A DNA stretch of 64,000 nucleotides from a virus, in the IMG/VR virus record IMGVR_UViG_3300037067_022550. One strand, given 5' to 3'. Both the position numbers and the translations under genes were made by a program. The notes under the pieces were generated by a model. The model worked only from the letters and a program-made list of their open reading frames with translations, was not told the DNA's origin and searched no databases. Below are positions 3,786-64,000 of the stretch, one piece after another. Numbering within the stretch: position 1 is the stretch's first letter; each line of letters starts with the position of its first letter.

Positions 3786-3848
3786 TTTTCTTCTTGACTT
3801 TATAATTTATATTGCTATCTTTCTTTTAAAGAAACAAAAAAATAAAGG

Positions 3849-4844: not shown

Positions 4845-4856
4845 TTTGTTAGAAAA

Positions 4857-16957: not shown

Positions 16958-17130
16958 ATGTATTTTATAACTCCTGTTTCAAGAAAGCTCATATGCTTTA
17001 GTCATAGGTATTTTATTTCTTAACCTATATATTATACAGTTTAAATTCAAAAAAGATAATTTAATGAAAGCCAGAAGGGATTATGTTAAGAACTGTTTTA
17101 AGGGCGTTTCAGACTACTTTAAATGCCAAT

Positions 17131-20700: not shown

Positions 20701-21480
20701 TTCTATACCACCAACTTCTATAATTTGATTTAAATTTGTTCCAATAGCTGCATAATATAAGCCATCAACAACCAAAGAAGGCATTACGGCTGCATGTCCA
20801 GCATCAGTTTTTAATGGAAGATCTCCGGCTGGTATAATAGGTGATACATGCATAATTCTACCAAATCCCGTAATAAATCTACAAATAGCCATATTGTTGC
20901 CCGTATCAGGTCTCGTACCAGTAGTCCATGAAACCACATTTGGATTTGATAAACGCCAATATGCATAATTTATAGCATTATCCACCAGTGTGTTAGAACC
21001 AGCAGCCAGATGATAATAACCGTTTGTGGGATCATATACGTCTCCTTCATTCCAAGAAACATTTAAATCAGCAATTGGAGAAATATTATATGTAAAAACA
21101 GGGATATCTCTTGCTGCTCCTCTTGAACTGGTGTCTTCTATGAATTTATCTAAATAATAACCACCTAATGCACCTATTTGTCTAAATCCTTCACTGCCTA
21201 AAGTTTTAGAAGCTATTATATTACTGTATGTATTAATATTGTTTTGTAAGTTAGTATCAGCAGAAGTGGATCTAACAATTTCGTTATCAATCTTAGCACC
21301 TAAATTAGTTTCAGCGGCAACAGCGCGAATTGATTCAGCTTCAACTTGTTCAATTACATAATTAGTAGTGGCAACATTACCATCTGAGGAACCGTCATGA
21401 ATAACAGTTCCAAAAGATAAATTACCAAACAACAAAACAATAAAAAACAATAATATTATGATGTTATATTTAAGTTTCAT
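17794..21480 (-). CDS. large fibre-like protein with signal peptide, ETNL repeats and a C1q-like C-terminal domain
   Basis: 1228 aa. N-terminal signal/TM MKLKYNIIILLFFIVLLFG. Four 18-aa repeats (NALHAADTNLQNNINVAS). C-terminal FIPPIAGWYEVNAEI fits the C1q GxYxF signature. SD GGGGAGAG upstream. Confidence 0.55.
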   Translation of the reverse strand: MKLKYNIIILLFFIVLLFGNLSFGTVIHDGSSDGNVATTNYVIEQVEAESIRAVAAETNLGAKIDNEIVRSTSADTNLQNNINTYSNIIASKTLGSEGFRQIGALGGYYLDKFIEDTSSRGAARDIPVFTYNISPIADLNVSWNEGDVYDPTNGYYHLAAGSNTLVDNAINYAYWRLSNPNVVSWTTGTRPDTGNNMAICRFITGFGRIMHVSPIIPAGDLPLKTDAGHAAVMPSLVVDGLYYAAIGTNLNQIIEVGGIEYQNMSQRNVHLSKNLTNYGFVSPATVLVTYYHTNTATWVYSVTNQLPIDKWDNGTNIVNCTVSNWYRGVFLSQEGNPAMEWVYPQIEYTNYASALAGDDPVLPPGFEPYVPKCTAYIFQGGDISLREESDYWLDRRFMIRRGTISTGGGSSGSSVPSLYQVLLKSPVTGGILPSGMGNPATDDQAANKGYVDSTINKINANRAYVDSDSGNDSTALLESSILPYKTIQAAIDDAAIVASDSNRFIVTVSPGIYPENITMKNYIGINANSIEATVIKGTVNWTTNYTDSNGTELTFITVFQTNAPAIIADAGADNAYMAVNSCYLRSDYDNDITNKSVIILKRGDVEIYSTTYNELNIIPTNGSESVCNAQIFESTDGESIGGLIKFSSFNSSSIINSKDENDNISITYNHDSSYRGINTVQGGISRIQLNTAGLSYSNNIIIAYNNRATGRIGYEGVFNILSLLTTNNCNLFLGYSANGKSGESGISFKDNRVSISDGNPSNVYWGAATHDKDSVFIINTILSSSLTNYPRRYTNSGYAGNFIYITPHSDGTLLLGGALDMSAENTGEQVNPASGHLRIFIDAVSGFERPYFTDSKGNQTRIGRDSVLTVYNSETNTLQRGELIYITSGISDTSHYVKRAKADSLSTMPCFGIVTSIGGISAGNRGMILRLGRAEYIMDTTSWTAGDKLYVSPLIAGGITNVEPTGTNISQFIGWCNVSATNGSINIQITKPDILGSQLPSYYASESNLNIEINRAGTAETNLQENVNIASNALHAVDTNLQNNINVASNALHAADTNLQGNINVTSNALHMADTNLQNNINTVSNMAMNALAAFDAYITNGWTIPNNKITTIPFIENGSVSGCYDNVKNAFIPPIAGWYEVNAEITIAGNHALTIYLSRCNSSSTNNIQSGGIGALANAHDARINAVLYDDGQTNWYIIRVLENAADTISGGGTNGSSRFKGHFIGR
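18215..18430 (-). repeat. in-frame tandem repeat, 4 copies of a 54-nt unit inside the fibre gene
   Basis: The unit catgtaaagcgttactagcaacattaatatt... recurs with a 54-nt period. It also generates the spurious antisense ORF 18224..18475. Confidence 0.5.
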
Positions 21481-24364: not shown

Positions 24365-24557
24365 ATTTTCTCCTGTTTGTTTTTATAATTATACAATGAT
24401 TTGTTTATTTTAATAATTTTACATTAAAAAATTAATCACAAATATATAATGTATTTCTGCATTTTATTCAATTATCCCTACCTTGAACATTTTTTAAAAT
24501 AAAAGGGTTTTAGCATTTTTTATTGAAAAACTAAATACAATTAGGAAATAATAAATT

Positions 24558-25667
24558 ATGTCACTTCAAACTAGAGCAACAGCATTACAAGGAGAATATG
24601 TTAGGCTTTATTGTAGATTTATTCAGGATGGCATTTTAACAGATCCTTTTGCTGCACCAGAAGTTTATATAACAGATAACGGCTATTATCCGGATTCTGT
24701 TTCTTCATCTGAATCTTCTTCCTATAGCTACTCACTATCAGTTTCATCAGAAAGTTCATCTGAATCTGGAATTTATTATGGACCATTTACTGCACAAAAA
24801 GAACATACAGGACTTTGGTATATAGATTGGTTAGTTCCTGATAGTTTGCCTATTGGTAAATATTTTGATGTATGGAAATTTAAATGGTCAATAGATACAA
24901 GTATTAATAAAACAGAAATATTTGAATTAGTAGTAAATAAAATGGATCAACTTGTTAATTCTGTTAGCCCTGCAGAAACTTTCAATGTTGGGGATAATGT
25001 TTACGGTATGATGAACGATCTATCAAATAATTTCATCTATGAAGCCATGCATATACCTATATATTGGGAACAAGGTTATAAATCTAATGATAAAAAAACA
25101 ATTAACTTTGCCTTTGGTAATTGGAATCACGATCCCAGACCTATAATTAGAGTAAATCAAAAAATTCGTCCAGACGGTTGGCAACCCAATTATAATGGCA
25201 ATATTTATTTTAACCAAAGTTTAGATCCGGAAGATATGGTCTATGCTCAATATAATTTTAAATATTTTAGTAAAGAAGAAATAATGGATTTTCTTAATAT
25301 GGGTTTATATGCCATGAATGCTACACCTCCAGCTAGCCTAACTTATAATAGTATTAATAGTTCTCCTTTTGCTTGGAGATTTGGGATTATTTTATATGCT
25401 GCTATTAAAGCTATTCAAAGATTGGTGTTCGGATTAAATTTCCAAGAAAGAGCTTTAATATTTGCAGAAAAACCAGAAAATGTACAAGCTGCCATTAATA
25501 ACTTTAAGGCACTTTATGCAGATTATAATACTTTGTGGATTGAAGTTAAAAAAGAAGTTAAGACCTTGAAGTTGCCTAGTATCGGACAAATTTCTGTTCC
25601 TGAATATACGTTACCAGGTGGCAGAAGTCGTTGGTTTCGTTATCTTTACAAAAATGGATCTGGTTAA
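24558..25667 (+). CDS. hypothetical protein with Ser-rich low-complexity segment
   Basis: 369 aa. Low-complexity stretch SVSSSESSSYSYSLSVSSESSSESG. Confidence 0.45.
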   Translation: MSLQTRATALQGEYVRLYCRFIQDGILTDPFAAPEVYITDNGYYPDSVSSSESSSYSYSLSVSSESSSESGIYYGPFTAQKEHTGLWYIDWLVPDSLPIGKYFDVWKFKWSIDTSINKTEIFELVVNKMDQLVNSVSPAETFNVGDNVYGMMNDLSNNFIYEAMHIPIYWEQGYKSNDKKTINFAFGNWNHDPRPIIRVNQKIRPDGWQPNYNGNIYFNQSLDPEDMVYAQYNFKYFSKEEIMDFLNMGLYAMNATPPASLTYNSINSSPFAWRFGIILYAAIKAIQRLVFGLNFQERALIFAEKPENVQAAINNFKALYADYNTLWIEVKKEVKTLKLPSIGQISVPEYTLPGGRSRWFRYLYKNGSG

Positions 25668-26794
25668 GATAGTTGATGTTTCTCTTTATATCTTTTTAAT
25701 ATTAATTCTTTGTTTAAATTTAATATTGCATTTTTGTGTTTTAAATACTCTTGTTCATCAAACTTGTATAAAAGTTCTTTTATCGCAAATTTTTTAGTTA
25801 TTTTTAATAATTCTGATGAAGATTTAAAATCAAATATTATCCTAGGTTTTAGTTTTAACGCAGGACATCTAAATCTTACTTCTGCTGTTAATCCAAATTT
25901 TTCATATAATATTGTCTTTAATTTTTTATTTTCTTCTTCGGTAAAAGATTCAGAACACAATTGACATCTTGGAAGAGCATTGTTTAATTTTATTCCGTTT
26001 CTATATCCCCAATCAGTTATCCCATCATCCATAAACCAAATTGCTAAAACAAACTCATTTATATAATCTTCCATATTTTCTGGAACTACCTTTTTTCCGT
26101 TTTTATAAAAAGATTCTTTTAATTCTAAATTTAAACTATGAACTTTACAAACAAGTTGAAAAGTATAAACCCTAGTTCCAGATCTCTTATCATCTCCTAC
26201 GTAATAAGTAAAAGGGTTATTATTCCAAATTTCCTTTAAAAAACTAGCTTTCCACTCTAAATACTCAACTTGTTTTTCAGAATGTTTTTCTCTAAAATTT
26301 CCCCATTTATCTATACAACCATCCCCCAGAAGTGATCCAATAATAACATCCTTGGCTTCTTGAGACAATGGTTTTTCATTAGCAAGTCTTCTTATAAAAG
26401 TAGCTCCTTTTCTCTTAATGCCATAGAAGTCTCTTAAATATGTAATGTGTTCTCTTGGTATATTATATTTTTTTGATATATCATCTAAACTATTTATGGT
26501 TTGGTTATATTCTAATTCAAAAATTTCCTTATTAATAATTGTTGATTGATTTTTTAAAAAGTAATTATAAAAACTAATTAAGTGTTTAGATGTACCTTTT
26601 TTTATTTCTTTTGAAAATCCTCCATTTAATATTTTTTCTTTATATTCTTCAAAAGATATAAATTCTTTTTTTCTATGAGATGGTATTTTTAATCCATGTT
26701 CTTCCTGTTGAATGTGGCATTTATCAATACATTCCACCAATTCTTTTCTTGCCATTTCGTTGCTCACTTTATAAATATTGCTTGTTTTTAACAT
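25664..26794 (-). CDS. free-standing LAGLIDADG homing endonuclease
   Basis: Two LAGLIDADG motifs: IIGSLLGDGCID and LAIWFMDDGITD. Confidence 0.6.
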   Translation of the reverse strand: MLKTSNIYKVSNEMARKELVECIDKCHIQQEEHGLKIPSHRKKEFISFEEYKEKILNGGFSKEIKKGTSKHLISFYNYFLKNQSTIINKEIFELEYNQTINSLDDISKKYNIPREHITYLRDFYGIKRKGATFIRRLANEKPLSQEAKDVIIGSLLGDGCIDKWGNFREKHSEKQVEYLEWKASFLKEIWNNNPFTYYVGDDKRSGTRVYTFQLVCKVHSLNLELKESFYKNGKKVVPENMEDYINEFVLAIWFMDDGITDWGYRNGIKLNNALPRCQLCSESFTEEENKKLKTILYEKFGLTAEVRFRCPALKLKPRIIFDFKSSSELLKITKKFAIKELLYKFDEQEYLKHKNAILNLNKELILKRYKEKHQLS

Positions 26795-26930
26795 TATTTA
26801 TTCTCCTTAATTGTATATCTTATTATATATTACCAGAATTATTATACAACATCCTACAAAAATATACAATTTATTTTACCATATTTTTTATCCAATAGGA
26901 TTCTCCCCTTTAATCCAAGAAACATATTTC

Positions 26931-27815
26931 ATGAACAACATTACAAAAATATTAACACTTATATTTTTATTAATTTCATCAATATTATTTGCAGATTCAT
27001 TTTCTGCTTATATTGAAAATGATGTATATGAAAATAGTGATGGTTTCTATACTCATGGAACACAATTAGAATATACTCATAATATAGATTCAACCAATGT
27101 TTTAGGAATTAAGGGATCACAAGAAATATTTACTCCATCTGACAAAAATAATCCCCTTCCTGAATATGGTGACAGACCTTATGCAGGATGGTTACATGGG
27201 GATGTTTATTTGGAAAGATATTATGATAATCATTGGATAGATCATTATGAATTAAGTCTGGGAGTAGTTGGACCATATTCAGGTGGAGAATTAGCTCAAA
27301 AAACAGTTCATAAATGGTTAGGCAACAAACAACCTCAAGGATGGCAATATCAACTATTAAATGAACCTACTATTCAAATAAATTATGGTAAAATATACTC
27401 TGTTTTTTTAAATGATTATGTTGAATTACGTCCAGAAATGAGATTAAATGCTGGTAATGTTTTAGATGATTTTGAACTTATTCAAACTGTAAGATTTGGT
27501 TATAATATTCCTAAAGATTTTAGTCCTAGAATTTCTATTAAAGGATTATCAAAGAAATATTATTGTTATGGATTTTTAGGAGTAGCTGGGGCTGCAATTG
27601 CTAGGAATTTACTTTTAGATGGGAATACATTTAGGGAAGATGAAGATGTTGTGACTGTAGAACATAGACCAATTGTTTGTGATGGAATAATGGGTATATG
27701 CTTTGGAATAAATTTTATAGAAATAACTGTTACCCATATTGAACAAACAGATGAATTTTATGGTCAGAAGAGAGATGAAAGATATGACAGCTTAAAGGTA
27801 AGGTACATTTGGTAA
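26931..27815 (+). CDS. outer-membrane protein, LpxR/DUF2219-like (putative lipid A deacylase family)
   Basis: Signal peptide MNNITKILTLIFLLISSILFA. Mature N-terminus has YIENDV, and GDRPYAGWLHGD recalls a conserved LpxR-family motif. Start moved from 26811 to the internal ATG at 26931. Confidence 0.35.
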   Translation: MNNITKILTLIFLLISSILFADSFSAYIENDVYENSDGFYTHGTQLEYTHNIDSTNVLGIKGSQEIFTPSDKNNPLPEYGDRPYAGWLHGDVYLERYYDNHWIDHYELSLGVVGPYSGGELAQKTVHKWLGNKQPQGWQYQLLNEPTIQINYGKIYSVFLNDYVELRPEMRLNAGNVLDDFELIQTVRFGYNIPKDFSPRISIKGLSKKYYCYGFLGVAGAAIARNLLLDGNTFREDEDVVTVEHRPIVCDGIMGICFGINFIEITVTHIEQTDEFYGQKRDERYDSLKVRYIW

Positions 27816-35925: not shown

Positions 35926-36573
35926 TTATTTGAAAATATTCAATTGTGACAACAATCCCATAGCTATCATAAGCTTTCCGTCTATTGGTTTTGTATCCGA
36001 AACCATATTAGCAATCCCTTCTTTTCCCAACCATTCTAACTGTATTCTTTCTTCATCATCACAAGATTGTTTTCCTGGTTCTCCTTCAATCTCTACAAAA
36101 AAATAATGTTGAATTTCATTACTATATCCAGGAGTTGGATATATCAACCCTATTTTTCTAATATTAAAAGCTTCATAACCAGTTTCTTCTTTCAGTTCTC
36201 TTTTTGCTGCATCTATTGCTGATTCTCCTGGATCTATTTTACCAGCTATTGCTTCAAGTAACAGACCTTCTACCGGTTTTCTAAATTGTCTAACACATAA
36301 TATTTTATTGTCTTTTTTTCTTAACGGCAATATAACAACCACTTCTGGAAAATTAACTATTTCCCTAATTGCTTTATTGCCATTATCTAATTCAACTTCG
36401 AGCTTGTCAATCTTTAATAGTTTGCCATCAAATACTCTTTGGGTTGATAATGTTCTTTCCATAAATAATTCTACCTTTCTATGATTTAAGAATTGGATGC
36501 AGTTTAACTTTTCTTGGGTTAAAATACCATTTAATTTGCTATTTTTGCATCTTAGCCCTGCAAGGTTTTCCAA
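35926..36573 (-). CDS. Nudix hydrolase (ADP-ribose pyrophosphatase-like)
   Basis: Nudix box GKIDPGESAIDAAKRELKEETGY. Confidence 0.7.
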   Translation of the reverse strand: MENLAGLRCKNSKLNGILTQEKLNCIQFLNHRKVELFMERTLSTQRVFDGKLLKIDKLEVELDNGNKAIREIVNFPEVVVILPLRKKDNKILCVRQFRKPVEGLLLEAIAGKIDPGESAIDAAKRELKEETGYEAFNIRKIGLIYPTPGYSNEIQHYFFVEIEGEPGKQSCDDEERIQLEWLGKEGIANMVSDTKPIDGKLMIAMGLLSQLNIFK

Positions 36574-44416: not shown

Positions 44417-44641
44417 TTATATTGAAATGGTTTTTCCTTTTGATGGCTGACTAGAAACAATATTAATAATATGTTCCCTAATTTTAGCGTCTAAATGAAA
44501 ATAAACATTTGGATCAACTCTAGTAAAAATATGACTTCTGTTTTTTTTAGCATATTCCAAAATATATCTTCTACACATTGATTTTTTTATCATCGTTTTC
44601 ATTATTTTATCATTCTCATAAATTCTTCTTCTGATATGCAT
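44417..44641 (-). CDS. hypothetical small protein (uncertain)
   Basis: 74-aa ORF overlapping the ligA 3' end. May start at an internal Met. Confidence 0.2.
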   Translation of the reverse strand: MHIRRRIYENDKIMKTMIKKSMCRRYILEYAKKNRSHIFTRVDPNVYFHLDAKIREHIINIVSSQPSKGKTISI

Positions 44642-46584
44642 GTGACTCCAAGGGCAGAAGCCTTATCCATCTTAGAACCGCACTTTTCTCCACAAATAAG
44701 ATAGTTTAATTTGCTTGAAACTGAAGAAGAAAAATTTCCCCCATTTTCTTCAATCATTTCTTGAAATTTGCTTCTTGAACTACTTAATGTTCCAGTAATG
44801 CAAAAGCTTTTACCATTTAGTTTTTTTGACATTGTTTCTTTATCCTTTTTTATTGTTATGTAACTATTCAATAATCTATCTATTTGATCCCTTTGCTTTT
44901 TCCATCCATTGATAAAAGAATTAGCTTTCTTTTCTTTAAATCCATGAATTTTAACTATATCTTCTACTTTTAATTTGTCAATATCTTTAATTGTAGGAGC
45001 TATGGCTGTAATATCTTTACTCATTCTGCCTATCTTGCCTATTCCCAAAGCTTCTATAAAATCTGCTAATGAAAGCTCCTTAACAGAATTAACAGCTTGA
45101 ACAATATTGGCAAAGGCTTTCTTGCCAAAAATCTCATTATACACTGCTGGGCCGTCGGGCTGATATATGTTAGACAGATTGCACAATAAATACATATCTG
45201 CAACATTCCTGAGTGGTATGTAGCCTTCTTTTTCTTCTCCAGATGTTAATTTTTCAATAATTCCTGGACCAATACCAAGAACTCCTATTTTTTTAAACCA
45301 ATGTTCTATGCATCTGTCAACCTGTGCTGGGCAAGCGTCATTATAGCAATGTTTTGTGGTTTCTGTATCATCCCATTCCAATTCTCCTTCACAAGCAGGG
45401 CAAGTATCTGGTATTTCTATTTTTTTCCCCTTGCCCTGTTCTACTACTTCAATTATTTTGGGAATAATATCTCCTGCTTTCTCCAGTACAATTTTGGTGC
45501 CCAAATTGGTAATGCCAAGTCGCGTCATTTCCTTTAAGTTATGGATAGTTGATCTTTGAACTGTTGTACCAGCAATATGAACTGGTTTTAACAATGCTAC
45601 AGGGGTCAAAGAACCTGTGCGACCAATGCTCCATTCTACGCCTTCCAAGATTGTCTCTTTTTTTTCTGTTGGGAATTTTATTGCCCTATTAGCTTTGAGT
45701 CTTTTACCTTCATCTGTTGTACCCATTGACTCTACTAATTCCAGATCATTAATTTTAACAACAATCCCATCAACATCAAAAGGCAAGTCTTCCCTCTTTA
45801 CTTGGTTCATAAATTTATTAATTTCTTTTATGACATCTTCTACTTTCTTGCCTTTACAAACAATCAAACTAGTTTCGTCCCTCAAGGTTTTAAACCCATT
45901 ATATTCAAGAAACTTTGATTTTTCAACTTCTTGTTTAAAGTCTACACCACGAACATCATAGGCTATAAACTCCAATCCTCTGCGTTTTGTTTCTTGTGGA
46001 TCTTTCTGGTTAATAGCTCCTGCAGTAAAATTTCTAGGATTGGCTGGATTCCTTCCGTTGATAAGTTGATTTGCCCAATTTTTATAAAAATCTTGTCTAT
46101 TTTTGAAAACTTCACCCTTAATTTCTACATATCCTTGGCTACTAATTTTTTCTTGAACGTTTTTAATAAAGCGAGCGTTACTTGTATAGTCCAACCCTTC
46201 TACTCCATCTCCACGAGAAACCCCCTGAATAAACTTACCGTCTTGATATTTAAGACAAAAAGAACTTCCGTCAACTTTTAATTCAACAACAAGAATAAGT
46301 TTGTCTAACTTATCACCGAATGTTTTCTCAAACCATTTTGCAAACTCATCTGTGTTTGGATCTTTGTTAAGAGATCCCATAATATATTTGTGTTTAACCC
46401 TAGTACCATAGACAGATTCTTCTATTCCACCAACTTCACTAAAAAAATCATTTGTGGGGTCAAGTTCTTTTAGAGCAGAATATTCCTTGTCATATTCATC
46501 ATCTGTAATAGGAGAAGTTCCATTGGTTTCATACAGTTTGGCACATTTTTTGAGATAATCTATCCTATCTTGAACTGATTTCAT
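44602..46584 (-). CDS. ligA: NAD-dependent DNA ligase
   Basis: Adenylation KxDG motif (ELKVDGSSF). Zn finger CPACEGELEW...C..ACP. C-terminal HhH and BRCT region. 660 aa. Confidence 0.85.
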   Translation of the reverse strand: MKSVQDRIDYLKKCAKLYETNGTSPITDDEYDKEYSALKELDPTNDFFSEVGGIEESVYGTRVKHKYIMGSLNKDPNTDEFAKWFEKTFGDKLDKLILVVELKVDGSSFCLKYQDGKFIQGVSRGDGVEGLDYTSNARFIKNVQEKISSQGYVEIKGEVFKNRQDFYKNWANQLINGRNPANPRNFTAGAINQKDPQETKRRGLEFIAYDVRGVDFKQEVEKSKFLEYNGFKTLRDETSLIVCKGKKVEDVIKEINKFMNQVKREDLPFDVDGIVVKINDLELVESMGTTDEGKRLKANRAIKFPTEKKETILEGVEWSIGRTGSLTPVALLKPVHIAGTTVQRSTIHNLKEMTRLGITNLGTKIVLEKAGDIIPKIIEVVEQGKGKKIEIPDTCPACEGELEWDDTETTKHCYNDACPAQVDRCIEHWFKKIGVLGIGPGIIEKLTSGEEKEGYIPLRNVADMYLLCNLSNIYQPDGPAVYNEIFGKKAFANIVQAVNSVKELSLADFIEALGIGKIGRMSKDITAIAPTIKDIDKLKVEDIVKIHGFKEKKANSFINGWKKQRDQIDRLLNSYITIKKDKETMSKKLNGKSFCITGTLSSSRSKFQEMIEENGGNFSSSVSSKLNYLICGEKCGSKMDKASALGVTCISEEEFMRMIK

Positions 46585-46630
46585 GGTTTTGTTCCTAAAT
46601 GGTTTATGACTTATTCTTTAAAATAATGTA

Positions 46631-47029
46631 TCAGATGTTAGTTGTTTTGTCAATACTATTTTGAAGAATATTGGCGTTTAATAATTCCAACCATTTGTTT
46701 TTTAGTTTAACGGAAATTTCGCGAGTGCCGACAGGTATTGCAATGTCAGAAGAAATAACTTTTGAACTATCCCAGTTTAAGCCAACTTTCACTGACTTCT
46801 CTGACACTTTCCTGCGAAAATCAGATTTACTAGATGAAATTCCCAACTCCAGCATTATCCATGATATATTAACTGGAAATGGGCACACTAAAATAACCAT
46901 GTCGTCTTCGCTTATATCTGCAATAATTGTGTTATCAAAAATCTTATCTCTGTTTTCAATTTCGCTAATCTGTTCGCAAATAAAACCAGACTTTATTTGG
47001 GGATGCCCACTTAATGAAAACTTATTCAT
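46631..47029 (-). CDS. hypothetical protein (possible S4-like RNA-binding C-terminus)
   Basis: FRRKVSEKSVKVGLNWDSSKV weakly resembles S4-type motifs. Confidence 0.3.
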   Translation of the reverse strand: MNKFSLSGHPQIKSGFICEQISEIENRDKIFDNTIIADISEDDMVILVCPFPVNISWIMLELGISSSKSDFRRKVSEKSVKVGLNWDSSKVISSDIAIPVGTREISVKLKNKWLELLNANILQNSIDKTTNI

Positions 47030-47160
47030 ATTTTGACTACATTCTTTAAAGGTTTCCTTACTTATTCTTTAAATACAATGTAGCAGACATTAATAGATTT
47101 GTCAAGTATTAACTTCTATTCTACCACTTTATGCAATTATTTAAATCACAATTATTAGCT

Positions 47161-55371: not shown

Positions 55372-55629
55372 GGGTTAAATCAGAACTCCAGCAATTAGAA
55401 ATTTATTTTAGAATATTTTTCTTGTGCGGAAGAAACAGAACAACCTATTTGTTTAGAAATAGCTTTGTAATTCCTATGACCTATTTTCTTCATATGAATT
55501 AGTTTTCTAACCCTGCTCCTGCTCCAAACAAACTTCTTTGAATATATCTTCATTTTATTTTTCCTTTTGTTTTTATACTTAATTGCATAAAAACATTTAT
55601 ATTATACAAATTAGAAGGAAAAATACAAA

Positions 55630-56738: not shown

Positions 56739-56808
56739 ATATATTATTATACAATAAAAACATCAGATATATTACAATGTTTATAAAACAGTAGACAAAA
56801 AGGTATAG

Positions 56809-58001: not shown

Positions 58002-58457
58002 ATGGGCAAAAAAAGAAAAATAAATAAAGAAACTAAAACATATAAAGAAAAAATAATTCGCCGTTTAAAAAAGAAATTATTAGCTCTTTGGTCTATGAAA
58101 GTAAAAGAACTCAATGGCAATTGTTGTGAAGTTGACGGATGTTCAACTGGAAATGCTCTTAATAGTCACCACGTAGAAAACTTTGTTGTTAATCCAGAGT
58201 TAAGATACGATCTTAATAATGGGGTTTGTTTGTGTCAAAGTCATCATAAATTTTTAGCCAAATCTGCTCACAAGTCTTTTATATTCATGTATGACTTAAT
58301 GTTGAAAAAACATCCAAAAAGTTTAGAATATCTAATTAATTTTAAGCCAACGGGAGAAGAACTAACTGTTGAAACATTAGAAAAAAAAATAAAGGAAATG
58401 GAATCTATTAAGTTTGTAAAAGAAAATCAAGATGTTAATAAAACAGGTAATGTGTGA
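58002..58457 (+). CDS. HNH endonuclease-like protein
   Basis: CEVDGCSTGNALNSHHVEN...NGVCLCQSHH gives an HNH-type motif. SD ATAGGAGAAAAACC upstream. Confidence 0.5.
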   Translation: MGKKRKINKETKTYKEKIIRRLKKKLLALWSMKVKELNGNCCEVDGCSTGNALNSHHVENFVVNPELRYDLNNGVCLCQSHHKFLAKSAHKSFIFMYDLMLKKHPKSLEYLINFKPTGEELTVETLEKKIKEMESIKFVKENQDVNKTGNV

Positions 58458-59299
58458 AAATAATTAAAATAGCTACAGAAATAACATTAGAAATGGTTAA
58501 AGATCCCAACTGTCCCCCAGAAATATTGACAGAAGTATTATTAAAAAAAGAAAATTATGATGATGAAGATTATGTTTCTCACTATGCGGCTATTAATCCT
58601 AATTGTCCTCCTGAAACATTGGCAAAAGTTTTAAGGAGAGAAAAAAATGATACTGTTTCTCAATGTGCTGTTGGTAATCCAAATTGCCCACCAGAAATAT
58701 TAACTGAAATATTAAAAAGAGGTAAAAATGATGATGTTTCTCTATATACTGCTACAAGTCCAAACTGTCCTCCAGAAACGTTAACAGAAGTATTAAAAAG
58801 AGGAAAAAATGATTTTGTTTCTAGGTATGCAGCCGGAAACCGCAATTGCCCTCCAGAAACATTAATAGAATTATTAAGGATAGGTAAAGATAATGAAGTT
58901 TCCCAACATGCAGCTCGTAATCCAAATTGCCCACCAGAAATGCTAGCTGAAGTATTAAAAAGATTGAAAAACGATAATGTTTCTGCATTTGCTTCTAAAA
59001 ATCCAAATTGCCCACCAGAATATGCTTGGTTGTGGAAAAACAAGATGCATAATCCAACCGACTGGTTTTTAAACTATTTGGATGCTTCTCCAACGGTAAA
59101 AAACGATCCTTATATAACTAAACTAGTTAAAACAGATTTAGTAAAAACATTAAATGATTTTTTTAATGGTAAAACATTACTAATGGGGAAAACATTACTA
59201 ATAGGTAAAGACAAAGATAAAATAAAAAAGTTAGTGGATTACTTTGGTAGCAATGACTTTGTAATTTCACTTTACAAAAATAAAATATTTAATAATTAA
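58454..59299 (+). CDS. NPNCPPExL (LRV/HEAT-like) repeat protein
   Basis: Six ~28-aa repeats NPNCPPE[IT]L[AT]EVLKRGKND.VS..AA. Ends with a WLW segment like 27821..28729. GTG start overlapping the upstream stop as GTGA. Confidence 0.5.
   Translation: MKIIKIATEITLEMVKDPNCPPEILTEVLLKKENYDDEDYVSHYAAINPNCPPETLAKVLRREKNDTVSQCAVGNPNCPPEILTEILKRGKNDDVSLYTATSPNCPPETLTEVLKRGKNDFVSRYAAGNRNCPPETLIELLRIGKDNEVSQHAARNPNCPPEMLAEVLKRLKNDNVSAFASKNPNCPPEYAWLWKNKMHNPTDWFLNYLDASPTVKNDPYITKLVKTDLVKTLNDFFNGKTLLMGKTLLIGKDKDKIKKLVDYFGSNDFVISLYKNKIFNN
58490..59030 (+). repeat. in-frame tandem repeats, about 6 copies of an 81-84-nt unit inside 58454..59299
   Basis: The nucleotide unit aatccaaattgcccaccagaaat... recurs. 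It produces the spurious antisense ORF 58660..59043. Confidence 0.5.
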
Positions 59300-59732: not shown

Positions 59733-60932
59733 TTATCTTACAATAGAAATTTTTCTGATAGCACTGGCAAAAATAGCATCTTTAGAATCTGTTGAACCTG
59801 TTCTTAATTCATAAAGTCCGTCAAATGCACATATATATCTTTCTATATTTTTATTAAGTACCATTTCTTTTTTATTGGAATTTTCTGAAACAATAGACTT
59901 GGGAAGAATATTGTTTATGAAATTCAATATGTCTTTATTGTTGTAATTTGATGGTAGATTCTCGTTTTTAAAATCAATTTCTTTATCTTCTGAAACTGAA
60001 TTCAAAATTCGGGGATCTAAAAGTTTCTGTTTGAATATTTCTTCCCTGATAAATTTGTTTACTGAAAAATTGTTTATTTTATTTAGTGTGCCATATTTAA
60101 ATAATAAATGAGAATAAATAACATGCCATCTTATCTGCTTCAAACACAATATAATAATGCCGTCATAATTAAAGCCGTTATTCATTAGATTTTCGGCAGC
60201 ATTCATTATTTTTGAATAAGAACCGGTATTTAAGGCTGTATAAAATGACCAAACAGGATAATCTTTTGACATTGGAAATGTTAGGTCAGTAACATCTTCT
60301 TGCTTTATATCATTTCCATCAACAGAAATAGAAATTTTATTAATTTCACTATTTAATGCCAATCTATTGTCTCCTACTATTTCAAGTAAAAGATTAGCAT
60401 TTTCTTGAGTAATTTTTTTATCTTGTTTTTTGAATTCTTCAACAATATATTTTATCTTTTCGCTTATTGAAAATTCTGAAATAGGAATTCCAGCATTTGA
60501 AATAGTAGCGTTTTGGTAACAAAATTGTTTAAAATCAATCCACTTTAGTTTTCCAAAACAAGCCTTACCGTTATTTAGAACATTAGTCTTGTCACATACA
60601 ATAAGATAATTGCTATGTGGTAAATTTTTAAAGGCATTAAATAAAAACTCAAGAAATGCGGAGCTATCTATTATTTCTTTTAAAACGATAAACTTTTTGT
60701 CATTGTCTATCCAAGAAGAACAGGTAATTTCAGAATCAACTAAATTAAGCCATTTTTCTTCAGATGATGATTTCTTTTTAAAACTAGGTATATCTATCTC
60801 TTTCCATAAATTTGGAGGAATTTGTTTTATGTTTGGAAAAAAATATTTTTTTATTTTTATTAGCTTTTCAGGATAAAATGACGGATCTCCACATATTAAA
60901 ATAACATTTTTTAATTTACTTTTTTCAGACAT
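59733..60932 (-). CDS. hypothetical protein, possibly clamp-loader delta-like subunit
   Basis: N-terminal NVILICGDPSF resembles the HolA N-terminus (yLlyG.d). Location next to dnaN. Weak call. Confidence 0.3.
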   Translation of the reverse strand: MSEKSKLKNVILICGDPSFYPEKLIKIKKYFFPNIKQIPPNLWKEIDIPSFKKKSSSEEKWLNLVDSEITCSSWIDNDKKFIVLKEIIDSSAFLEFLFNAFKNLPHSNYLIVCDKTNVLNNGKACFGKLKWIDFKQFCYQNATISNAGIPISEFSISEKIKYIVEEFKKQDKKITQENANLLLEIVGDNRLALNSEINKISISVDGNDIKQEDVTDLTFPMSKDYPVWSFYTALNTGSYSKIMNAAENLMNNGFNYDGIIILCLKQIRWHVIYSHLLFKYGTLNKINNFSVNKFIREEIFKQKLLDPRILNSVSEDKEIDFKNENLPSNYNNKDILNFINNILPKSIVSENSNKKEMVLNKNIERYICAFDGLYELRTGSTDSKDAIFASAIRKISIVR

Positions 60933-61238
60933 AATAATTATTATTTCAATTTACTGAACCATTAATTTTCCATGATTTTTGACAACCACCCTTGCCTTGC
61001 TAAAGATGAAAAAGCAGAACTTTTTGCTTTCCAGACTTCGTCTTCTTTTGAATTTTCTCCTCCTACTCCGTCTTTATCCCAAGTATACCATAGTCAGTTA
61101 GAATAAACAGATGCCCTACATCTTCCAAAAGGAGAAAAACTTAATTGCCATTCTTGTAGACAATCTGACCAATGCCACCTTAAAAAATATAATACAATTC
61201 TACGAAATATGGAATACATTTTTTTTGATCCAAAATAA

Positions 61239-62477
61239 TTAATTTGGTGTCATACTTTGCATCAAATAGACAAAATTGGTATCTTTATCAATAGAAGACA
61301 TTTTTATCTTTTTTTCGTCTTTAGAAAATGAAATTTTTATATTATTTCCATTTATCTTTTTACAACCATCTTTAATAAAACTATTTGACATTGCAACAGG
61401 ATTGTTTAAAGAAGATTCGATTTGATTACATCCTACAATAGCTGTTTCTGGATCAGTTCCTCTTCTGGCTGCATCAACCTTTATCTCTGATTTACCAGCA
61501 TTAACATGAAAGATTGATTTTTCAGAATTATATAGACTCAAGAATTCAACAGCTTCTAACAAGTCTGCTTTATCTACAACTATATTTGTTGGCAAATTCA
61601 AATTAAGTATATTAATGAAATTGGGAAACTGTTGTTTAATTTCTTCTGATGCAATACATAATTTTATTTTAAGTCTTTCTGAAGATAGTATAATATGTTC
61701 CTTATTTTCACAATCAATTATTTCAATTTTTTCATCATCTTCAAATGATTTGCAAGATGTTTTTAATAAATTACCGTCAATTAAAAATTTTTGTTCATCA
61801 CAATTAATTTTAACATCATCTTTATTTTCGCCAATAGAGAAAATGGCACATCTTTTGCCGTCTGTACCAGCTAAATAAATATTTTTACCAGAAACAACAA
61901 TTGCTATCCTATCAAGGATGTTGGACAAATCTGTTGGGTCTACTGCAAATATTACTTGTTCTACGGCTTCTTTAAACGCTTTGGCTTTAAGAGAAAAAAT
62001 AACTTTATTGTAGTTATAATCAACTTTAACAAACTCACTAACTGGAAAGGTATCGTTTTTGCCCTTTCTTTTCTCTGATTTGTTATCAATAGCTATTGTT
62101 GTTATTTTGCCGTTAGGCTGAACAATTCCTGCAAAAGAATCTTTACCATAATTTTCATTTTCTTCATAAGAAATCTGAATGGAATATTTATTGGAAAGGG
62201 TATTTAAAACCTTTAAGTAACTACTTGCTTCAACACAAAAGCTGCCTTCTTCTTCTGTAATTATACTTTCATCTTTTGGGACAGAGCATAATATGGATAT
62301 TTTTGGAGACGAAGATTCAAAAGCAATGGAATCTTTATTTGAAGATATTTTTATACAAGAATCAGTTGGCCTAATTTTCTTTCTTTCTTCATCTTGTGAA
62401 TCTTTGGTTAATGCTCCAGATACACTTTTTTCTACTAATGCTGTTAATGTTTTTAACGGTACTGTCATTTTCATCAT
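61239..62477 (-). CDS. dnaN: DNA polymerase III beta subunit (sliding clamp)
   Basis: N-terminal MKMTVPLKTLTALVEK, LAGTDGKRCAI, and C-terminal FVYLMQSMTP resembling the beta-clamp C-terminal motif. 412 aa. Confidence 0.7.
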   Translation of the reverse strand: MMKMTVPLKTLTALVEKSVSGALTKDSQDEERKKIRPTDSCIKISSNKDSIAFESSSPKISILCSVPKDESIITEEEGSFCVEASSYLKVLNTLSNKYSIQISYEENENYGKDSFAGIVQPNGKITTIAIDNKSEKRKGKNDTFPVSEFVKVDYNYNKVIFSLKAKAFKEAVEQVIFAVDPTDLSNILDRIAIVVSGKNIYLAGTDGKRCAIFSIGENKDDVKINCDEQKFLIDGNLLKTSCKSFEDDEKIEIIDCENKEHIILSSERLKIKLCIASEEIKQQFPNFINILNLNLPTNIVVDKADLLEAVEFLSLYNSEKSIFHVNAGKSEIKVDAARRGTDPETAIVGCNQIESSLNNPVAMSNSFIKDGCKKINGNNIKISFSKDEKKIKMSSIDKDTNFVYLMQSMTPN

Positions 62478-62580
62478 ACTATTTTACTCCTTTGTTCTTA
62501 ATTTTTATCAACTACTTTTTAACTACTTTTTAACTATCAATCATTATACAATAAAATATAAAAATGCAAAGTAAATATTT

Positions 62581-63486
62581 TTAATTGAACAAAAGAGGGA
62601 CAATATCTTTGCTGTTGCATTTAATAAGTTCTTGAGCCTTTTTTCTTATTCTTAATAGGGCATTGTCTATAGACTTGGCATTATATCTAATTTCTAATCT
62701 TTTAGACACCCCTTTAGCAACTTCTTTATAAGATTTTTCATTTAAGTATTCCTCTAAAACCACTATTTCAAAACTACTCAATCTACTTTTTATTGATTCA
62801 AATGTTTGATTAAAACTTTCTTTATCTGAAAGTTTTTTGTAAGGTAATGTTTTATTATTATCATCTGCAATTATGTTAGAAAGAGGAGCCATTTCCATTT
62901 CATTGTCATTTTGATTAATTGGAGAATGATCCATGCTAACAGCAGTATTTATTGGAATATTTTTTTTCCTATGTTTGGATGCGTGTAGAATAGTTATAAG
63001 ATGTCTAGTTATACACATTTTGGCAAAATTTAAAAAAGACATTCCTTTATTGGGATTGAATTTTGGTATAGCTTTTTTAAACAATGCTATTAAAGATTCT
63101 TGATACATGTCGTTTTCATCGTAACCTTTAATAAAACTAAATTTTTTAAATACTAAACCCAACAAATATTTGTGTATATAAAAATGTATTTTATTGAAAC
63201 AATCATTATCATTTGGATGTTTTTGCATTTTTAATGCTAATGCATCAAGTTCTTTTCTTACTTCTCGGGGAGTTCCTATTAAAGGATCATTTACTCCCGT
63301 AACATTAAAAATAGAAACATCTTCTTCAACAGAACTTATAGGTAAGATTTCATCTGATATTACAACCTTTATCTTTTTTCTATAATTTCTTTTTTTAAAA
63401 CAGGAACGTTTTTTAAACACTCTTACCTGTTTAATCTTTTTATTACATTTTGTTTTTCTTTTGTTTTTTGATTTAACTAGTGGCAT
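62581..63486 (-). CDS. RNA polymerase sigma factor (sigma-70 family) with K/R-rich N-terminal extension
   Basis: Region 2: DMYQESLIALFKKAIPKFNPNKGMSFLNFAKMCITRHL. Region 4 HTH: SYKEVAKGVSKRLEIRYNAKSIDNALLRIRKKA. SD AAGGGGGA is 4 nt before the ATG. Confidence 0.65.
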   Translation of the reverse strand: MPLVKSKNKRKTKCNKKIKQVRVFKKRSCFKKRNYRKKIKVVISDEILPISSVEEDVSIFNVTGVNDPLIGTPREVRKELDALALKMQKHPNDNDCFNKIHFYIHKYLLGLVFKKFSFIKGYDENDMYQESLIALFKKAIPKFNPNKGMSFLNFAKMCITRHLITILHASKHRKKNIPINTAVSMDHSPINQNDNEMEMAPLSNIIADDNNKTLPYKKLSDKESFNQTFESIKSRLSSFEIVVLEEYLNEKSYKEVAKGVSKRLEIRYNAKSIDNALLRIRKKAQELIKCNSKDIVPLLFN

Positions 63487-63539
63487 CAATCCCCCTTTTA
63501 AAGGATAGACGCCGCACGCTATGTTTCTAATCTAATTTA

Positions 63540-64000
63540 TTATTTCGCATTACTGACATCGTTTTTAAGAAGAATAAGGCAATTAATTAGTGCAGCCTCT
63601 AATATCCATCTTTCATTTAAATTAACGTTTATTTCTTTTTCTATTCTACTCAAAGCACTTGCCGTCTTAATCAAACTATTTCTATTAACCTTTTCTGCAA
63701 TTTCAGCAATGGACTTTCTTTCAACATCCAAAACATCTAATAGAGCTGAATCTTTCCCACAAATTTTACATACAAATATATTTCTTAAAATATATGAAAT
63801 ATCATTTAATATTGTTTTTGCTTCTATTCCAGATTGCAATAAAATATTAACTTTTTCTAATAGCCCAGAAGCATCCTGTGAAACCATTAAATTAACTATT
63901 TCATAAGTAATGGTTTCATCAGGGATACCAAAATATTCATTGGCTTCTTTTTCTCCTATCTTATTGTCTTTTGCCATAGCAATTTGTTCTAAATGATTAA
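63540..64000 (-). CDS. dnaX: DNA polymerase III tau/gamma (DnaX)-like, C-terminal part only, 5' end beyond the window
   Basis: The reading frame stays open upstream of the listed Met to the window edge. ITYEIVNLMVSQDASGLLEKVNILLQSGIEAKTILNDISYILRNI resembles DnaX domain III. Confidence 0.45.
   Translation of the reverse strand, partial: NHLEQIAMAKDNKIGEKEANEYFGIPDETITYEIVNLMVSQDASGLLEKVNILLQSGIEAKTILNDISYILRNIFVCKICGKDSALLDVLDVERKSIAEIAEKVNRNSLIKTASALSRIEKEINVNLNERWILEAALINCLILLKNDVSNAK

Follow-up and report, generated by a model that had tools for sequence, protein, structure and literature searches.

In bacteriophage T4, an acidic-hydrophobic epitope that binds the sliding clamp is shared by the C-termini of gp55, gp33 and gp43, where it follows a variable linker (PMC2988020). 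In the T4 cryo-EM complex, the clamp is positioned upstream, next to the flap-tip site where sigma region 4 normally sits (PMC7892883). Phage Mu MuC engages the E. coli beta clamp via QxDLF-type motifs (PMC12867686, PNAS 2026), and the clamp-binding consensus quoted in the same paper is QL[SD]LF. Here we describe a 64-kb stretch of viral DNA (the window) in which a sigma factor gene lies among clamp and clamp-loader genes and ends in a candidate clamp-binding peptide.

A conserved cassette of clamp, clamp-loader and sigma genes

As shown in Table 1, all four cassette genes are on the minus strand of the window. They encode a clamp-loader ATPase (dnaX), a sigma factor, a sliding clamp (dnaN) and a clamp-loader delta subunit (holA), and the cassette is conserved in a clade of huge uncultured phages. 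The order dnaX-sigma-dnaN-holA was kept in 11 of 11 loci examined (about 10 lineages), counting one locus that stops inside dnaN, short of holA, and one with a methyltransferase inserted between sigma and dnaN. Since these loci span about 10 lineages, lie on contigs of 7 to 512 kb with a GC content of 28-50%, and have sigma identities down to about 44%, the order is a signature of the clade and not a chance neighbourhood. An identical sigma was found on a 264-kb contig, with relatives on 476-512-kb contigs and in IMG/VR, which fits the jumbo-phage origin proposed in the original prediction.

Table 1. Positions of the cassette genes and associated features in the window.
Feature	Position	Strand	Description or basis
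topA	12308-14299		Real gene
ligA	44602-46584		Real gene
holA-like	59733..60932	-	399 aa, delta subunit (clamp opener); TIGR01128 E=3.6e-22; P-loop absent
dnaN-holA spacer	60933..61238	-	306 nt; lineage-specific
dnaN	61239..62477	-	412 aa, three-domain beta sliding clamp; Pfam, PHROG and NCBIfam matches
Tandem 11-mer AGTTAAAAAGT x2.5	62508..62535	-	In the leader of dnaN, 3' of the -10-like box and 5' of the ribosome-binding site; read from sequence
TGTATAAT box	62543..62550	-	-10-like promoter element 5' of dnaN (TTTGCA-16-TATAAT)
Sigma factor	62581..63486	-	301 aa, sigma-70-family, SigH-type; NCBIfam SigH models E=8e-33
Sigma tail motif D-I-V-P-L-L-F	62587..62607	-	aa 294-300, candidate clamp-binding peptide; family conservation
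Sigma N-terminal extension	63289..63486	-	aa 1-66, K/R-rich head, then short acidic/Ser stretch; family alignment
dnaX 3' end	63540..64000	-	Last 152 codons and stop (domain III, collar); open to window edge

The dnaX fragment matched domain III (PF12169, E=1.4e-11; TIGR02397, E=1.5e-14, model positions 219-354 of 355), as expected for the partial DnaX that had been predicted to run past the window. The complete gene, whose recovery had been proposed, was obtained on loci L001/L002 and encodes 370 aa with a Walker A (GQFGSGKTS), a 4-Cys zinc module, a Walker B (DECH), an SRC motif and sensor 2. It terminates after domain III, tau domains IV-V being absent, and dnaX thus encodes a gamma-only, ATPase-competent clamp-loader motor. 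The holA-like protein scored 79.1 bits against TIGR01128, just under the cutoff of 80, and the delta of B. subtilis (PDB 3zh9) was matched by its family profile at E=4.1e-5. Its AF2 model was poor (pLDDT 57), and the top Foldseek matches were delta subunits (3zh9, 1jr3_D, 1jqj_D). This gene, always directly 3' of dnaN and formerly listed as possibly delta-like, encodes a divergent HolA/delta, the clamp opener. A delta-prime (HolB) paralogue was absent from the 64 kb and from every 15-20-kb locus.

DnaN matched Pfam DNA_pol3_beta (E=1.6e-14) together with the central and C-terminal domains, phrog_947 (E=1e-24) and TIGR00663 (E=8e-24). Its AF2 model has three domains (pLDDT 91.8, pTM 0.87), and each of its best 50 Foldseek matches was a beta clamp (E about 1e-23 to 6e-27, TM 0.74-0.87; 0.76-0.87 against bacterial clamps). 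The predicted beta clamp thus models as one, and the family assignments of all four cassette genes are far above chance. The segments lining its cleft, GTDGKRCA, FPNF and YLMQSM, rank among the most conserved DnaN columns. The non-coding gap reported downstream of dnaN exists, with a length of 306 nt and not 305. It holds an 85-codon frame broken by a single TGA, the ordinary stop in 10 of 70 genes. Its fold z-score was -0.8, the best Rfam match had an E of about 2 with scores far under gathering thresholds, and blastn against the phage collection gave no match. Other lineages are without the spacer, and dnaN and holA abut or overlap there.

Neither the window nor a further 10 kb outside it contains a DNA polymerase, helicase, primase, delta-prime or tau domain, so the description of the element as self-contained and encoding much of its own replisome was an overreach; the ligA and topA genes noted elsewhere in the window are both genuine.

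In 8 of 10 loci, a [GT]TATAAT box lay within about 85 nt 5' of dnaN. For the called dnaX start the count was likewise 8 of 10, with the box no more than 70 nt away on the 5' side, and in a ninth locus (L004) the box overlaps the called start; none of the 10 loci had it upstream of sigma. GTATAAT occurred 9 times in L003 (1.24 expected) and 4 times in L004 (0.54 expected), counts reached by 0 of 200 shuffles, and 6 times in the window's upstream regions (0.6 expected). The genuinely recurrent upstream element is TGTATAAT, and the recurring motif earlier pointed out at 46609 and 47062 has two copies only, a local duplication of a sigma-70-like promoter and not a regulon signal. In no locus does a promoter box separate sigma from dnaX, so the two are probably transcribed together. 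From the promoter positions we infer two transcription units in the cassette, dnaX-sigma and dnaN-holA, both with a -10-like TGTATAAT box and without a conserved -35 element.

The sigma factor and its C-terminal tail

The second cassette gene encodes a SigH-type factor of the sigma-70 family. It can start at a TTG (62581-63489) or at the ATG at 63486, and the ATG form corresponds to public gene calls. The SigH match covers aa 100-292, and PDB 3mzy (sigma-H) was matched at E=1.4e-10 by the sequence alone and at E=1.2e-17 by the family profile; the homologues number 317. Regions 2.1-2.4 and the helix-turn-helix of region 4.2 align with SigH, and the family assignment of the original prediction, which had named regions 2.4 and 4.2 as its check, is borne out. 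Residues 1-40 contain 20 K/R and no D/E. Family N-terminal extensions range from 41 to 185 aa, with medians of 33% K/R and 5% D/E in the first 40 residues and 20% D/E in the last 30. The basic extension remarked on earlier is therefore present, and is a family-wide trait and not peculiar to one gene. Its K/R-rich head would probably add non-specific DNA affinity.

In the window, DIVPLLF is separated from the sigma stop by a single residue. Across the family, [LIVMFA]P[LIM][LFVIM] was found 10-16 residues after the RIRKK anchor in 113 of 119 sigmas, behind a linker that is variable. The tail consensus, 10-16 residues past region 4.2, is acidic-hydrophobic, [DE][DESA][LIV]-P-[LI][FLV][FLIM]; the Pro was invariant in the motif-bearing tails tallied for the logo (114/114), and position -2 was D/E in 104 of them. 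Between the motif and the C-terminus lie a median of 4 and at most 13 residues, e.g. LPIFLPKKATHTV and LPLVFGNVES. The motif was absent from all full-length outgroup sigmas (114 outgroup sequences with the anchor); the only outgroup matches were one internal match and short fragments of the same sigma family. The sigma tail was the sole real C-terminal occurrence among the ORFs of the window and loci. The conserved tail motif of the family sigmas is new here. Neither this tail nor the strict gene order had been noticed in the original prediction.

Compared with QL[SD]LF, the hydrophobic residues of the tail coincide at positions 2, 4 and 5. Gln1 is replaced by D/E/S/A/N in most family sigmas, and a Pro at position 3 is atypical of known clamp-binding motifs. 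The most divergent orthologues have QLALF (L010) and QIPIF (L011) at the tail position, which in sequence terms are the canonical beta-clamp-binding pentapeptide. Three DnaN homologues carry a C-terminal extension of their own with LPIF, GLPF or PLPF, which hints that this peptide class belongs with the clamp. No covariation was seen between tail variants and clamp pocket residues (9 pairs).

Proposed clamp tethering and alternative roles of the tail

These features suggest, but do not prove, that the phage couples its own transcription to DNA replication. We tentatively favour, at somewhat less than even confidence, a clamp-tethered sigma that would be a bacterial-type counterpart of T4 gp55/gp33-gp45 and Mu MuC-beta. 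The sigma would redirect the RNA polymerase of the host to one class of promoters on the phage DNA, and the acidic-hydrophobic peptide (DIVPLLF here), on its short linker after region 4.2, would dock on the phage beta clamp, in its hydrophobic cleft. Where the gamma/delta loader of the phage has left clamps on replicating or nicked DNA of the phage, these would then tether the sigma holoenzyme to DNA on the upstream, sigma-4 side, and tethering would speed promoter search or promoter opening, making this transcription class replication-dependent. The logic would be that of T4 gp45 with gp55/gp33, assembled from bacterial-type parts. The synteny (11/11), the tail in 113/119 sigmas, the QLALF/QIPIF orthologues and the conserved cleft segments argue for such tethering; the mostly replaced Gln, the atypical Pro, the lack of tail-pocket covariation and the likeness to the SSB tip argue against it, as does the full region 4, with which the sigma, unlike gp55, may need no upstream activator.

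It is also possible, though in our view somewhat less probable, that the protein is an ordinary middle or late sigma, inherited in a block with clamp genes for co-expression only, whose tail serves as a short linear motif for an anti-sigma or co-activator of the phage, an RNA polymerase contact or a lifetime-limiting degradation tag. Both regions 2 and 4 are retained, the consensus Gln1 is mostly missing, and protease tags are also typically hydrophobic C-terminal tails. Sigma genes are common in jumbo phages and do not require a clamp link (PMC7824862). However, the position between loader and clamp is fixed over about 10 lineages with GC from 28 to 50%, which exceeds the needs of co-expression, QLALF and QIPIF in divergent orthologues are textbook motifs, and the acidic-hydrophobic motif resembles the T4 clamp-binding epitopes (PMC2988020).

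Less probable still, and in our view unlikely, is mimicry of the SSB tip, by which the sigma would dock on an SSB-interacting protein or ssDNA intermediates and couple to replication without the clamp. The C-terminal tip of SSB is DDDIPF. Like this tip, the phage sigma has an acidic run and then I/L-P-hydrophobic-F near its C-terminus (consensus [DE][DE][LIV]-P-[LI]-F), and GLPF and PLPF stand at the extreme C-terminus of two DnaN homologues. The SSB tip, however, acts through a free C-terminal Phe carboxylate, whereas the phage motif usually stops short of the extreme C-terminus (median 4, up to 13 residues), has an additional hydrophobic residue between Pro and Phe, and loses its Pro in QLALF of L010; a chi/HolC-like partner was not seen in the loci.

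A low-GC bacterial or plasmid segment with housekeeping dnaX/dnaN/holA and a cellular SigH is very improbable: all four genes are of bacterial type and JGI labels the sigma a 'sporulation-specific sigma factor', but NCBIfam equivalog cutoffs are widely missed (sigma 114 vs 212, DnaN 84 vs 138, DnaX fragment 54 vs 250), DnaX is without tau domains, tRNA and rRNA genes are absent from the 64 kb, a phage tail-tube gene, a phage metallopeptidase, homing endonucleases and an intein lie nearby, the related contigs (60-476 kb) are viral entries of IMG/VR, and the majority of ORFs are without any family match.

Comparison with known systems

Bacterial sigma-H (SigH/Spo0H type; 3mzy) proteins are the best-scoring cellular relatives of the phage sigma, sharing regions 2.1-2.4 and the 4.2 helix-turn-helix, with an FAxxCIxR signature replacing the sigma-70 WW dyad. 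Unlike them, the phage sigma scores 114 bits, roughly half of the equivalog cutoff of 212. Its family also differs in having the basic/acidic N-terminal extension of 41-185 aa, a DPLxGTPxEV segment that is conserved, six extra residues inserted into the 4.2 helix-turn-helix, and the C-terminal tail, which begins where SigH (3mzy) ends. Like the bacterial loader (DnaX3-HolA-HolB), the phage has a DnaX with Walker A/B, zinc module, SRC arginine finger and collar, and a delta homologue; its clamp, like bacterial DnaN, has three domains and the TDGxR and FP cleft segments. In contrast, the phage DnaX has no tau link to polymerase or helicase, the delta exceeds its cellular counterpart by about 60 aa, HolB has no counterpart in the 64 kb or the 15-20-kb loci, and the loader and clamp proteins fall far under orthologue cutoffs.

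As in T4 late transcription, a phage-encoded promoter-specificity factor carries an acidic-hydrophobic C-terminal peptide behind a variable linker, clamp and clamp loader are phage-encoded, and the clamp would sit upstream, on the flap-tip side of RNA polymerase, where the phage sigma tail leaves region 4. T4 differs in having a clamp that is trimeric and PCNA-like, with the RFC-like gp44/62 as its loader, instead of a DnaN-type beta clamp and DnaX/HolA, and in splitting its factor into gp55, a region-2-like domain only, and gp33, which replaces region 4, whereas here one complete SigH-type sigma bears the tail on region 4. The T4 genes are not in a loader-sigma-clamp-loader arrangement, and clamp binding is proven in T4, whereas we only infer it for the phage sigma. 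In Mu MuC/Mor, likewise, the transcription factor has a QL[SD]LF-like motif at a terminus by which it recruits a beta clamp of bacterial type, and late genes are switched on (PMC12867686). MuC, however, is a small DNA-binding activator that works with the sigma-70 and the clamp of its host. In the phage described here the motif, mostly x-L-P-L-F and not Q-x-D-L-F, is on the sigma factor itself, and both clamp and loader are encoded by the phage.

Gene order and phage context of the cassette

The ORFs of the minus-strand run at the right end of the window were found as the original prediction had described them. The window has 29% GC and is transcribed mostly from the minus strand, and no tRNA or Rfam match was found in its 64 kb. 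Profiles of the four proteins were run against the ORFs of the window and 11 loci, and dnaX, sigma, dnaN and holA lie in the same order and on one strand in every locus (the L009 contig stops within dnaN, ahead of holA). The sole insertion in the cassette among the window and these loci is a methyltransferase gene, which in L005 separates sigma from dnaN. GC varies from 28 to 50% among the loci, and the sigmas are as little as about 44% identical. The strongest contextual fact is that, over such divergence, the sigma gene keeps its place between the genes for the clamp-loader motor and for the clamp. In the two contig loci that carry the window's own genes, a dATP/dGTP diphosphohydrolase-like gene (PF18909) and a dNMP kinase gene are directly upstream of dnaX (L002 1017-1981; L001 4721-6174, past the window's right edge). 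Further out, L001 has an IS605-type TnpA/TnpB pair, a peptide deformylase gene and a tail-tube-like gene.

Coordinates of the cassette and of promoter-like elements in the window
Feature	Position	Strand	Remark
holA-like gene	59733-60932	-	399 aa
dnaN-holA spacer	60933-61238	-	306 nt
dnaN	61239-62477	-	412 aa
11-nt tandem repeat	62508-62535	-	follows the dnaN box
TGTATAAT box	62543-62550	-	dnaN box
sigma	62581-63486	-	301 aa, ATG start
dnaX 3' end	63540-64000	-	open at window edge
TGTATAAT box	56746-56753	-	
TGTATAAT box	55601-55608	-	
TGTATAAT box	24388-24395	-	
TGTATAAT box	17031-17038	-	
TTGACA-17-TACATT plus AAAGAATAAGT	46625-46653	-	perfect sigma-70-type promoter, one of two copies
TTGACA-17-TACATT plus AAAGAATAAGT	47077-47105	-	perfect sigma-70-type promoter, one of two copies

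The cassette carriers are a clade of huge phages. A jumbo-phage origin had been proposed, and it is supported by an identical sigma on a 264-kb contig and by relatives on contigs of 476, 507 and 512 kb; further relatives are in IMG/VR. Among the neighbours in the window and loci are genes for a metallopeptidase and a tail-tube protein, both of phage type, for peptide deformylase, topoisomerase I and homing endonucleases, and an intein. A cellular rather than phage origin of the window is very unlikely. In a 90%-identity database the sigma family has 317 members. When 1.84 billion representatives were searched with a profile, about 25 clusters scored above 220 bits, followed by four matches of 149-181 bits, mostly fragments, and then by ordinary SigH-sized proteins at 150 bits or less. 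Among 50,697 deposited phage genomes, tblastn with DnaN found no match, and the sigma matched only eight unannotated records at 27-35% identity (four named Listeria phage and four human-faecal 'Bacteriophage sp.' contigs); that collection holds no member of the clade and no cultured relative. A single-protein sigma scan of viral contigs returned nothing; an alignment-based scan did retrieve relatives.

Several other genes were observed in the window. A UDP-glucose/GDP-mannose dehydrogenase gene at 9197-11914 (-) is split by an intein with a LAGLIDADG endonuclease, and a free-standing LAGLIDADG gene lies at 25664-26794. The product of the gene at 26811-27815 (+) is homologous to LpxR, a lipid A deacylase of the outer membrane (Pfam E=6e-66); this is a hint that the host has an outer membrane and that the phage possibly remodels lipid A. 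Adjacent CoaB-like (DFP) and CoaC-like (Flavoprotein) genes for steps of coenzyme A biosynthesis at 1384-2750 (+) are followed at 2754-5657 by genes for a GT4 glycosyltransferase, a radical SAM enzyme and an R2K ATP-grasp protein. A 281-aa protein (58454-59299, +) has six 27-residue (81-nt) repeats with the core NPNCPPE-L-E-L and could be placed in no family. The 1228-aa ORF at 17794-21480 (-), with internal 54-nt repeats and no Pfam or PHROG match, is possibly a fibre or structural protein.

Clamp, clamp loader and SigH-like sigma

The dnaX fragment in the window encodes DnaX domain III (PF12169, E=1.4e-11; TIGR02397, E=1.5e-14, model positions 219-354 of 355). Recovery of the full gene, which the original prediction had called for, was achieved with the public contigs L001 (37.8 kb) and L002 (7.5 kb), and the complete DnaX has 370 aa. 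A four-Cys zinc module is typical of DnaX. The L002 full gene, identical over the window's portion, encodes this module together with Walker A GQFGSGKTS, Walker B DECH, an SRC arginine finger, sensor 2 and collar domain III. The protein ends at residue 370, directly past domain III, so that tau domains IV-V, which bind polymerase alpha and DnaB, are absent; orthologues have 364-423 aa. With these motifs and its end after the collar domain, the phage DnaX is an ATPase-competent gamma without tau domains.

DnaN matches all three Pfam beta-clamp domains, the N-terminal one over threshold (54.5 vs 24.4) and the central (26.4 vs 27) and C-terminal (25.8 vs 27) ones slightly below; it also matches phrog_947 (E=1e-24) and TIGR00663 (E=8e-24, with a score of 84 vs a cutoff of 137.65). 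Its AF2 model, from 21 homologues, has the three-domain fold expected of a beta clamp (pLDDT 91.8, pTM 0.87), and in Foldseek its 50 best PDB matches are bacterial beta clamps without exception (TM 0.74-0.87, E down to 6e-27). Judged from sequence, the phage DnaN is a divergent member of the beta clamps. The segments matching E. coli residues 171-178, 240-247 and 360-366 can be aligned; these segments, which in cellular clamps line the client cleft (TDGxR, FP and C-terminal Y-x-M-x-x-M), are among the best-conserved columns in the phage DnaN family. T205, G207 and P285 are invariant, and single pocket residues differ.

For the gene suggested to be delta-like, the protein matches TIGR01128 (holA) at E=3.6e-22 (79.1 bits, 0.9 bit below cutoff) and has no match in Pfam; a profile of the protein and its orthologues matches B. 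subtilis delta 3zh9 ('DELTA') at E=4.1e-5, and the assignment holds. The AF2 model, from 7 sequences, is weak (pLDDT 57) and informative for secondary structure only, which runs in the order beta-alpha Rossmann, lid and helical collar. Its best Foldseek matches are the delta subunits 3zh9, 1jr3_D and 1jqj_D, yet with TM about 0.2. The N-terminus reads GDPSFYPEK at the would-be P-loop position.

Over its residues 100-292 the sigma matches NCBIfam SigH models (E=8e-33). Its regions 2.4 and 4.2, on which the sigma assignment had been made to depend, both align with SigH: matches to the sigma-H structure 3mzy (E=1.4e-10 with the single sequence, 1.2e-17 with the family profile) span regions 2.1-2.4 and the 4.2 helix-turn-helix, and the profile match begins at GYDExDxYQE. 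Region 2 is found by Pfam Sigma70_r2 at E=1.1e-4 (22.4 bits, slightly below the gathering score of 24), and there is no separate Pfam r4 match. In region 4.2, SYKEVA...SIDNALLRIRKKA of the phage sigma aligns with SYREIA...SIDNTIQRIRKKS of SigH, with a 6-residue insertion in the turn. Against the equivalog cutoff of 212 bits for bacterial SigH, the phage sigma reaches at best 113.7, and against 294.8 for TIGR02859 it reaches 101; it is a SigH-like relative and not SigH itself. All four cassette proteins are well under curated orthologue cutoffs and are divergent relatives of the cellular proteins, not orthologues.

The N-terminal extension of the sigma has 66 aa in the window and 41-185 aa in the family. 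The earlier description of it as K/R-rich was right, but it is not particular to this sigma: in family sigmas K/R make up a median of 33% of the initial 40 residues, and D/E a median of 20% of the 30 residues that precede the core, so that the basic-then-acidic layout is a family-wide trait. Next comes a conserved segment, F-x-DPLxGTPxEVxxELDxLA, ahead of the SigH-like regions 2 and 4.

The cassette is a clamp and clamp-loader module containing a sigma. To call it self-contained, as had been done, was too strong. Besides the missing tau domains, a sensitive phmmer search that compared DnaX with every ORF of the window and of 11 loci found no delta-prime paralogue, and the window and the 10 kb past it have no polymerase, helicase or primase gene.

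The spacer between dnaN and holA is found in the window's lineage only; in the other loci the two genes abut or overlap. It gave no match by blastn against the phage collection, and its GC is 0.32-0.35 vs 0.29 for the window. As a structured RNA it was rejected (fold z-score -0.8; best Rfam E about 2, far below gathering thresholds). It has an 85-codon frame (ATG at 61219) with one in-frame TGA, and a recoded gene was also rejected, TGA being an ordinary stop in the window. The spacer may be what is left of a small gene that decayed, or of an insertion.

Promoter-like boxes and probable transcription units

The word TGTATAAT/GTATAAT is the sole non-Shine-Dalgarno word enriched in the window's upstream regions. 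GTATAAT was counted 6 times upstream of window genes (0.6 expected) and TGTATAAT 5 times (0.37 expected). The strong Shine-Dalgarno word AGGAGAAA is likewise enriched there. GTATAAT is also over-represented in GC-richer relatives, with 9 copies in L003 (1.24 expected) and 4 in L004 (0.54 expected), counts reached by no shuffle. TGTATAAT was noted in L003, L004 and L005-L011 too, and is strongly over-represented in the relatives with 47-50% GC.

The boxes have regular positions in the cassette. [GT]TATAAT lies within about 85 nt upstream of dnaN in eight of ten loci. Ahead of dnaX it lies no more than 70 nt from the called start in eight of ten, and in a ninth, L004, it overlaps the start. In every locus the region upstream of sigma is free of such boxes; in L006 and L010 one lies directly ahead of the called holA start. 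Since boxes precede dnaX and dnaN and none precedes sigma, dnaX-sigma and, in most lineages, dnaN-holA look like two transcription units. No conserved -35 element accompanies the boxes, which are probably a -10-only or extended -10 promoter class. The dnaN leader of the window has, between its -10-like box and the RBS, 2.5 copies of the 11-nt repeat AGTTAAAAAGT, which is possibly an operator.

A recurring motif at 46609 and 47062 had been put forward as a possible target of this sigma. It has just two copies, each a TTGACA-17-TACATT promoter with AAAGAATAAGT, and was rejected as a regulon signal. The copies flank a 132-aa ORF (46631-47029), one being upstream of ligA and the other upstream of the ORF, and are a local duplication.

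The C-terminal tail of the sigma and a possible link to the clamp

Past the RIRKK end of the 4.2 recognition helix, after a variable linker, the phage sigmas have at 10-16 residues a nearly invariant motif with the logo G/K, E/K, [DE], [DESA], [LIV], P, [LI], [FLV], [FLIM]. The SigH structure (3mzy) stops where this tail starts. The motif is found in 113 of 119 family members; in the window's sigma it reads DIVPLLF, followed by N and the stop. Pro is present in 114/114 motif-bearing tails and D/E at position -2 in 104/114; position -1 is D in 40, E in 17, S in 15, A in 15 and N in 10 of them. Matches among the outgroup sequences are short C-terminal fragments of the phage sigma family and one internal match, so that no full-length outgroup sigma has the motif. 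The sigma apart, no real protein encoded by the ORFs of the window and loci has this motif at its C-terminus.

In hexapeptide form the beta-clamp-binding motif is QLxLxL. As quoted for bacteria it is QL[SD]LF (PMC12867686). Like this motif, the phage tail is hydrophobic at positions 2, 4 and 5 (L/I/V at 0, L/I at +2, F/L/V at +3), but it usually has D/E/S/A/N in place of Gln, and Q is found at position 1 only in L010 and L011. The most divergent orthologue, that of L010, has ...SEVQLALFE at the exact tail position, and the L011 orthologue has ...DQIPIFIS; both are canonical QLxLF-type peptides. Because of the tail motif, the conserved cleft segments of the clamp and the precedents of T4 and Mu, we tentatively propose that the tail tethers the phage's sigma to its clamp. 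The tail peptide on region 4 would bind the DnaN-type beta clamp, making a complete sigma-70-family sigma a clamp client, and the tether would link one class of phage transcription to replication.

Somewhat less probably, the tail serves another partner, such as an anti-sigma factor, a co-activator, RNA polymerase or a protease. Across nine sigma-DnaN pairs no clear covariation was seen between tail variants and clamp pocket residues; the L010 and L011 tails point to the clamp. The tip of SSB, DDDIPF, ends the protein with a free Phe carboxylate. Mimicry of this tip by the acidic, Pro-containing tail is improbable, since the motif is usually not at the extreme C-terminus (0-13 residues follow it, median 4) and the QLALF variant is without Pro.

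Tails resembling clamp-binding motifs were also observed in other proteins. Three DnaN homologues in the DnaN alignment (P0133, P0136 and P0137) have C-terminal extensions of their own with GLPF, LPIF or PLPF, ending ...NTGLPF, ...GKLPIFKGRFAQVV and ...STPLPF; these peptides, of the same kind as the sigma tail, are possibly self-ligands of the clamp. A NUDIX/MutT-like hydrolase of the window (35926-36573, -; Pfam E=1.5e-18) ends ...SQLNIFK, a canonical-looking beta-clamp-binding pentapeptide; the enzyme could sanitise the nucleotide pool while tethered to the clamp, or the match could be due to chance. The RecD2-type helicase of L010 ends ...AYDLFNSA. QLNIFK and YDLFNSA are weak leads to other putative clamp clients. 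Topoisomerase I has acidic-hydrophobic ends in L006 (5078-7183, DDLDTL), L007 (5139-7247, DVLGID), L008 (5328-7310, DDILDV) and L009 (5356-7377, EDLGIE); the window's topA has no such tail. A polymerase was found neither in the window nor in the loci. Two outgroup SigH-like sigmas end ...PDDLFS (P0178, in L013) and ...SLEDLF (P0268, in L012), a hint that clamp-binding phage sigmas may be widespread. The ORFs flanking the L013 sigma give very weak DnaX-domain-III (E=0.022) and DnaN-N (Pfam E=0.04) signals in cassette order, which hhalign did not bear out; the genes downstream of the L012 and L013 sigmas were rejected as DnaN (insignificant signals; Pfam E=0.04, hhalign probability <1%).

Phage sigma factors and phage clamp modules are each already known (PMC7824862). 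We found no literature report of the cassette, of the sigma family or of a sigma-70-family protein with a clamp-binding tail. If the tether is not real, the cassette and its sigma are a new, well-delimited member of known groups, and the cassette with its TGTATAAT boxes is still a clade marker and a starting point for promoter analysis. If it is real, it is a new form of clamp-activated transcription made from bacterial-type parts; sigma factors would join the list of beta-clamp clients, and uncultured megaphages would have a concrete, testable mechanism of gene timing. Peptide, clamp, loader and sigma could all be made synthetically, so that in vitro tests need neither the phage nor its host.

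Clamp-activated transcription was long seen as peculiar to T4-like phages. In T4, gp55, gp33 and the polymerase bind the clamp by a shared short epitope, acidic-hydrophobic and C-terminal, that sits on a variable linker (PMC2988020). Cryo-EM places the T4 clamp at the upstream end, beside gp33 on the beta flap tip, the usual place of sigma region 4 (PMC7892883); a clamp-binding peptide on region 4 would point to that same upstream-end site. In 2026 Mu was added, a phage that relies on the beta clamp of its host: with MuC, the bacterial clamp can activate transcription through QL[SD]LF-type motifs (PMC12867686). We tentatively suggest that huge phages made a replication-coupled transcription switch of their own, in which sigma region 4 acquired a clamp-binding peptide and the sigma gene was locked in place between the phages' own genes for clamp loader and clamp. 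If true, the coupling of late transcription to replication would be a recurrent solution reached from different parts, and the phage sigma-clamp switch, compared with T4 gp45/gp55/gp33, an independent, bacterial-type reinvention.
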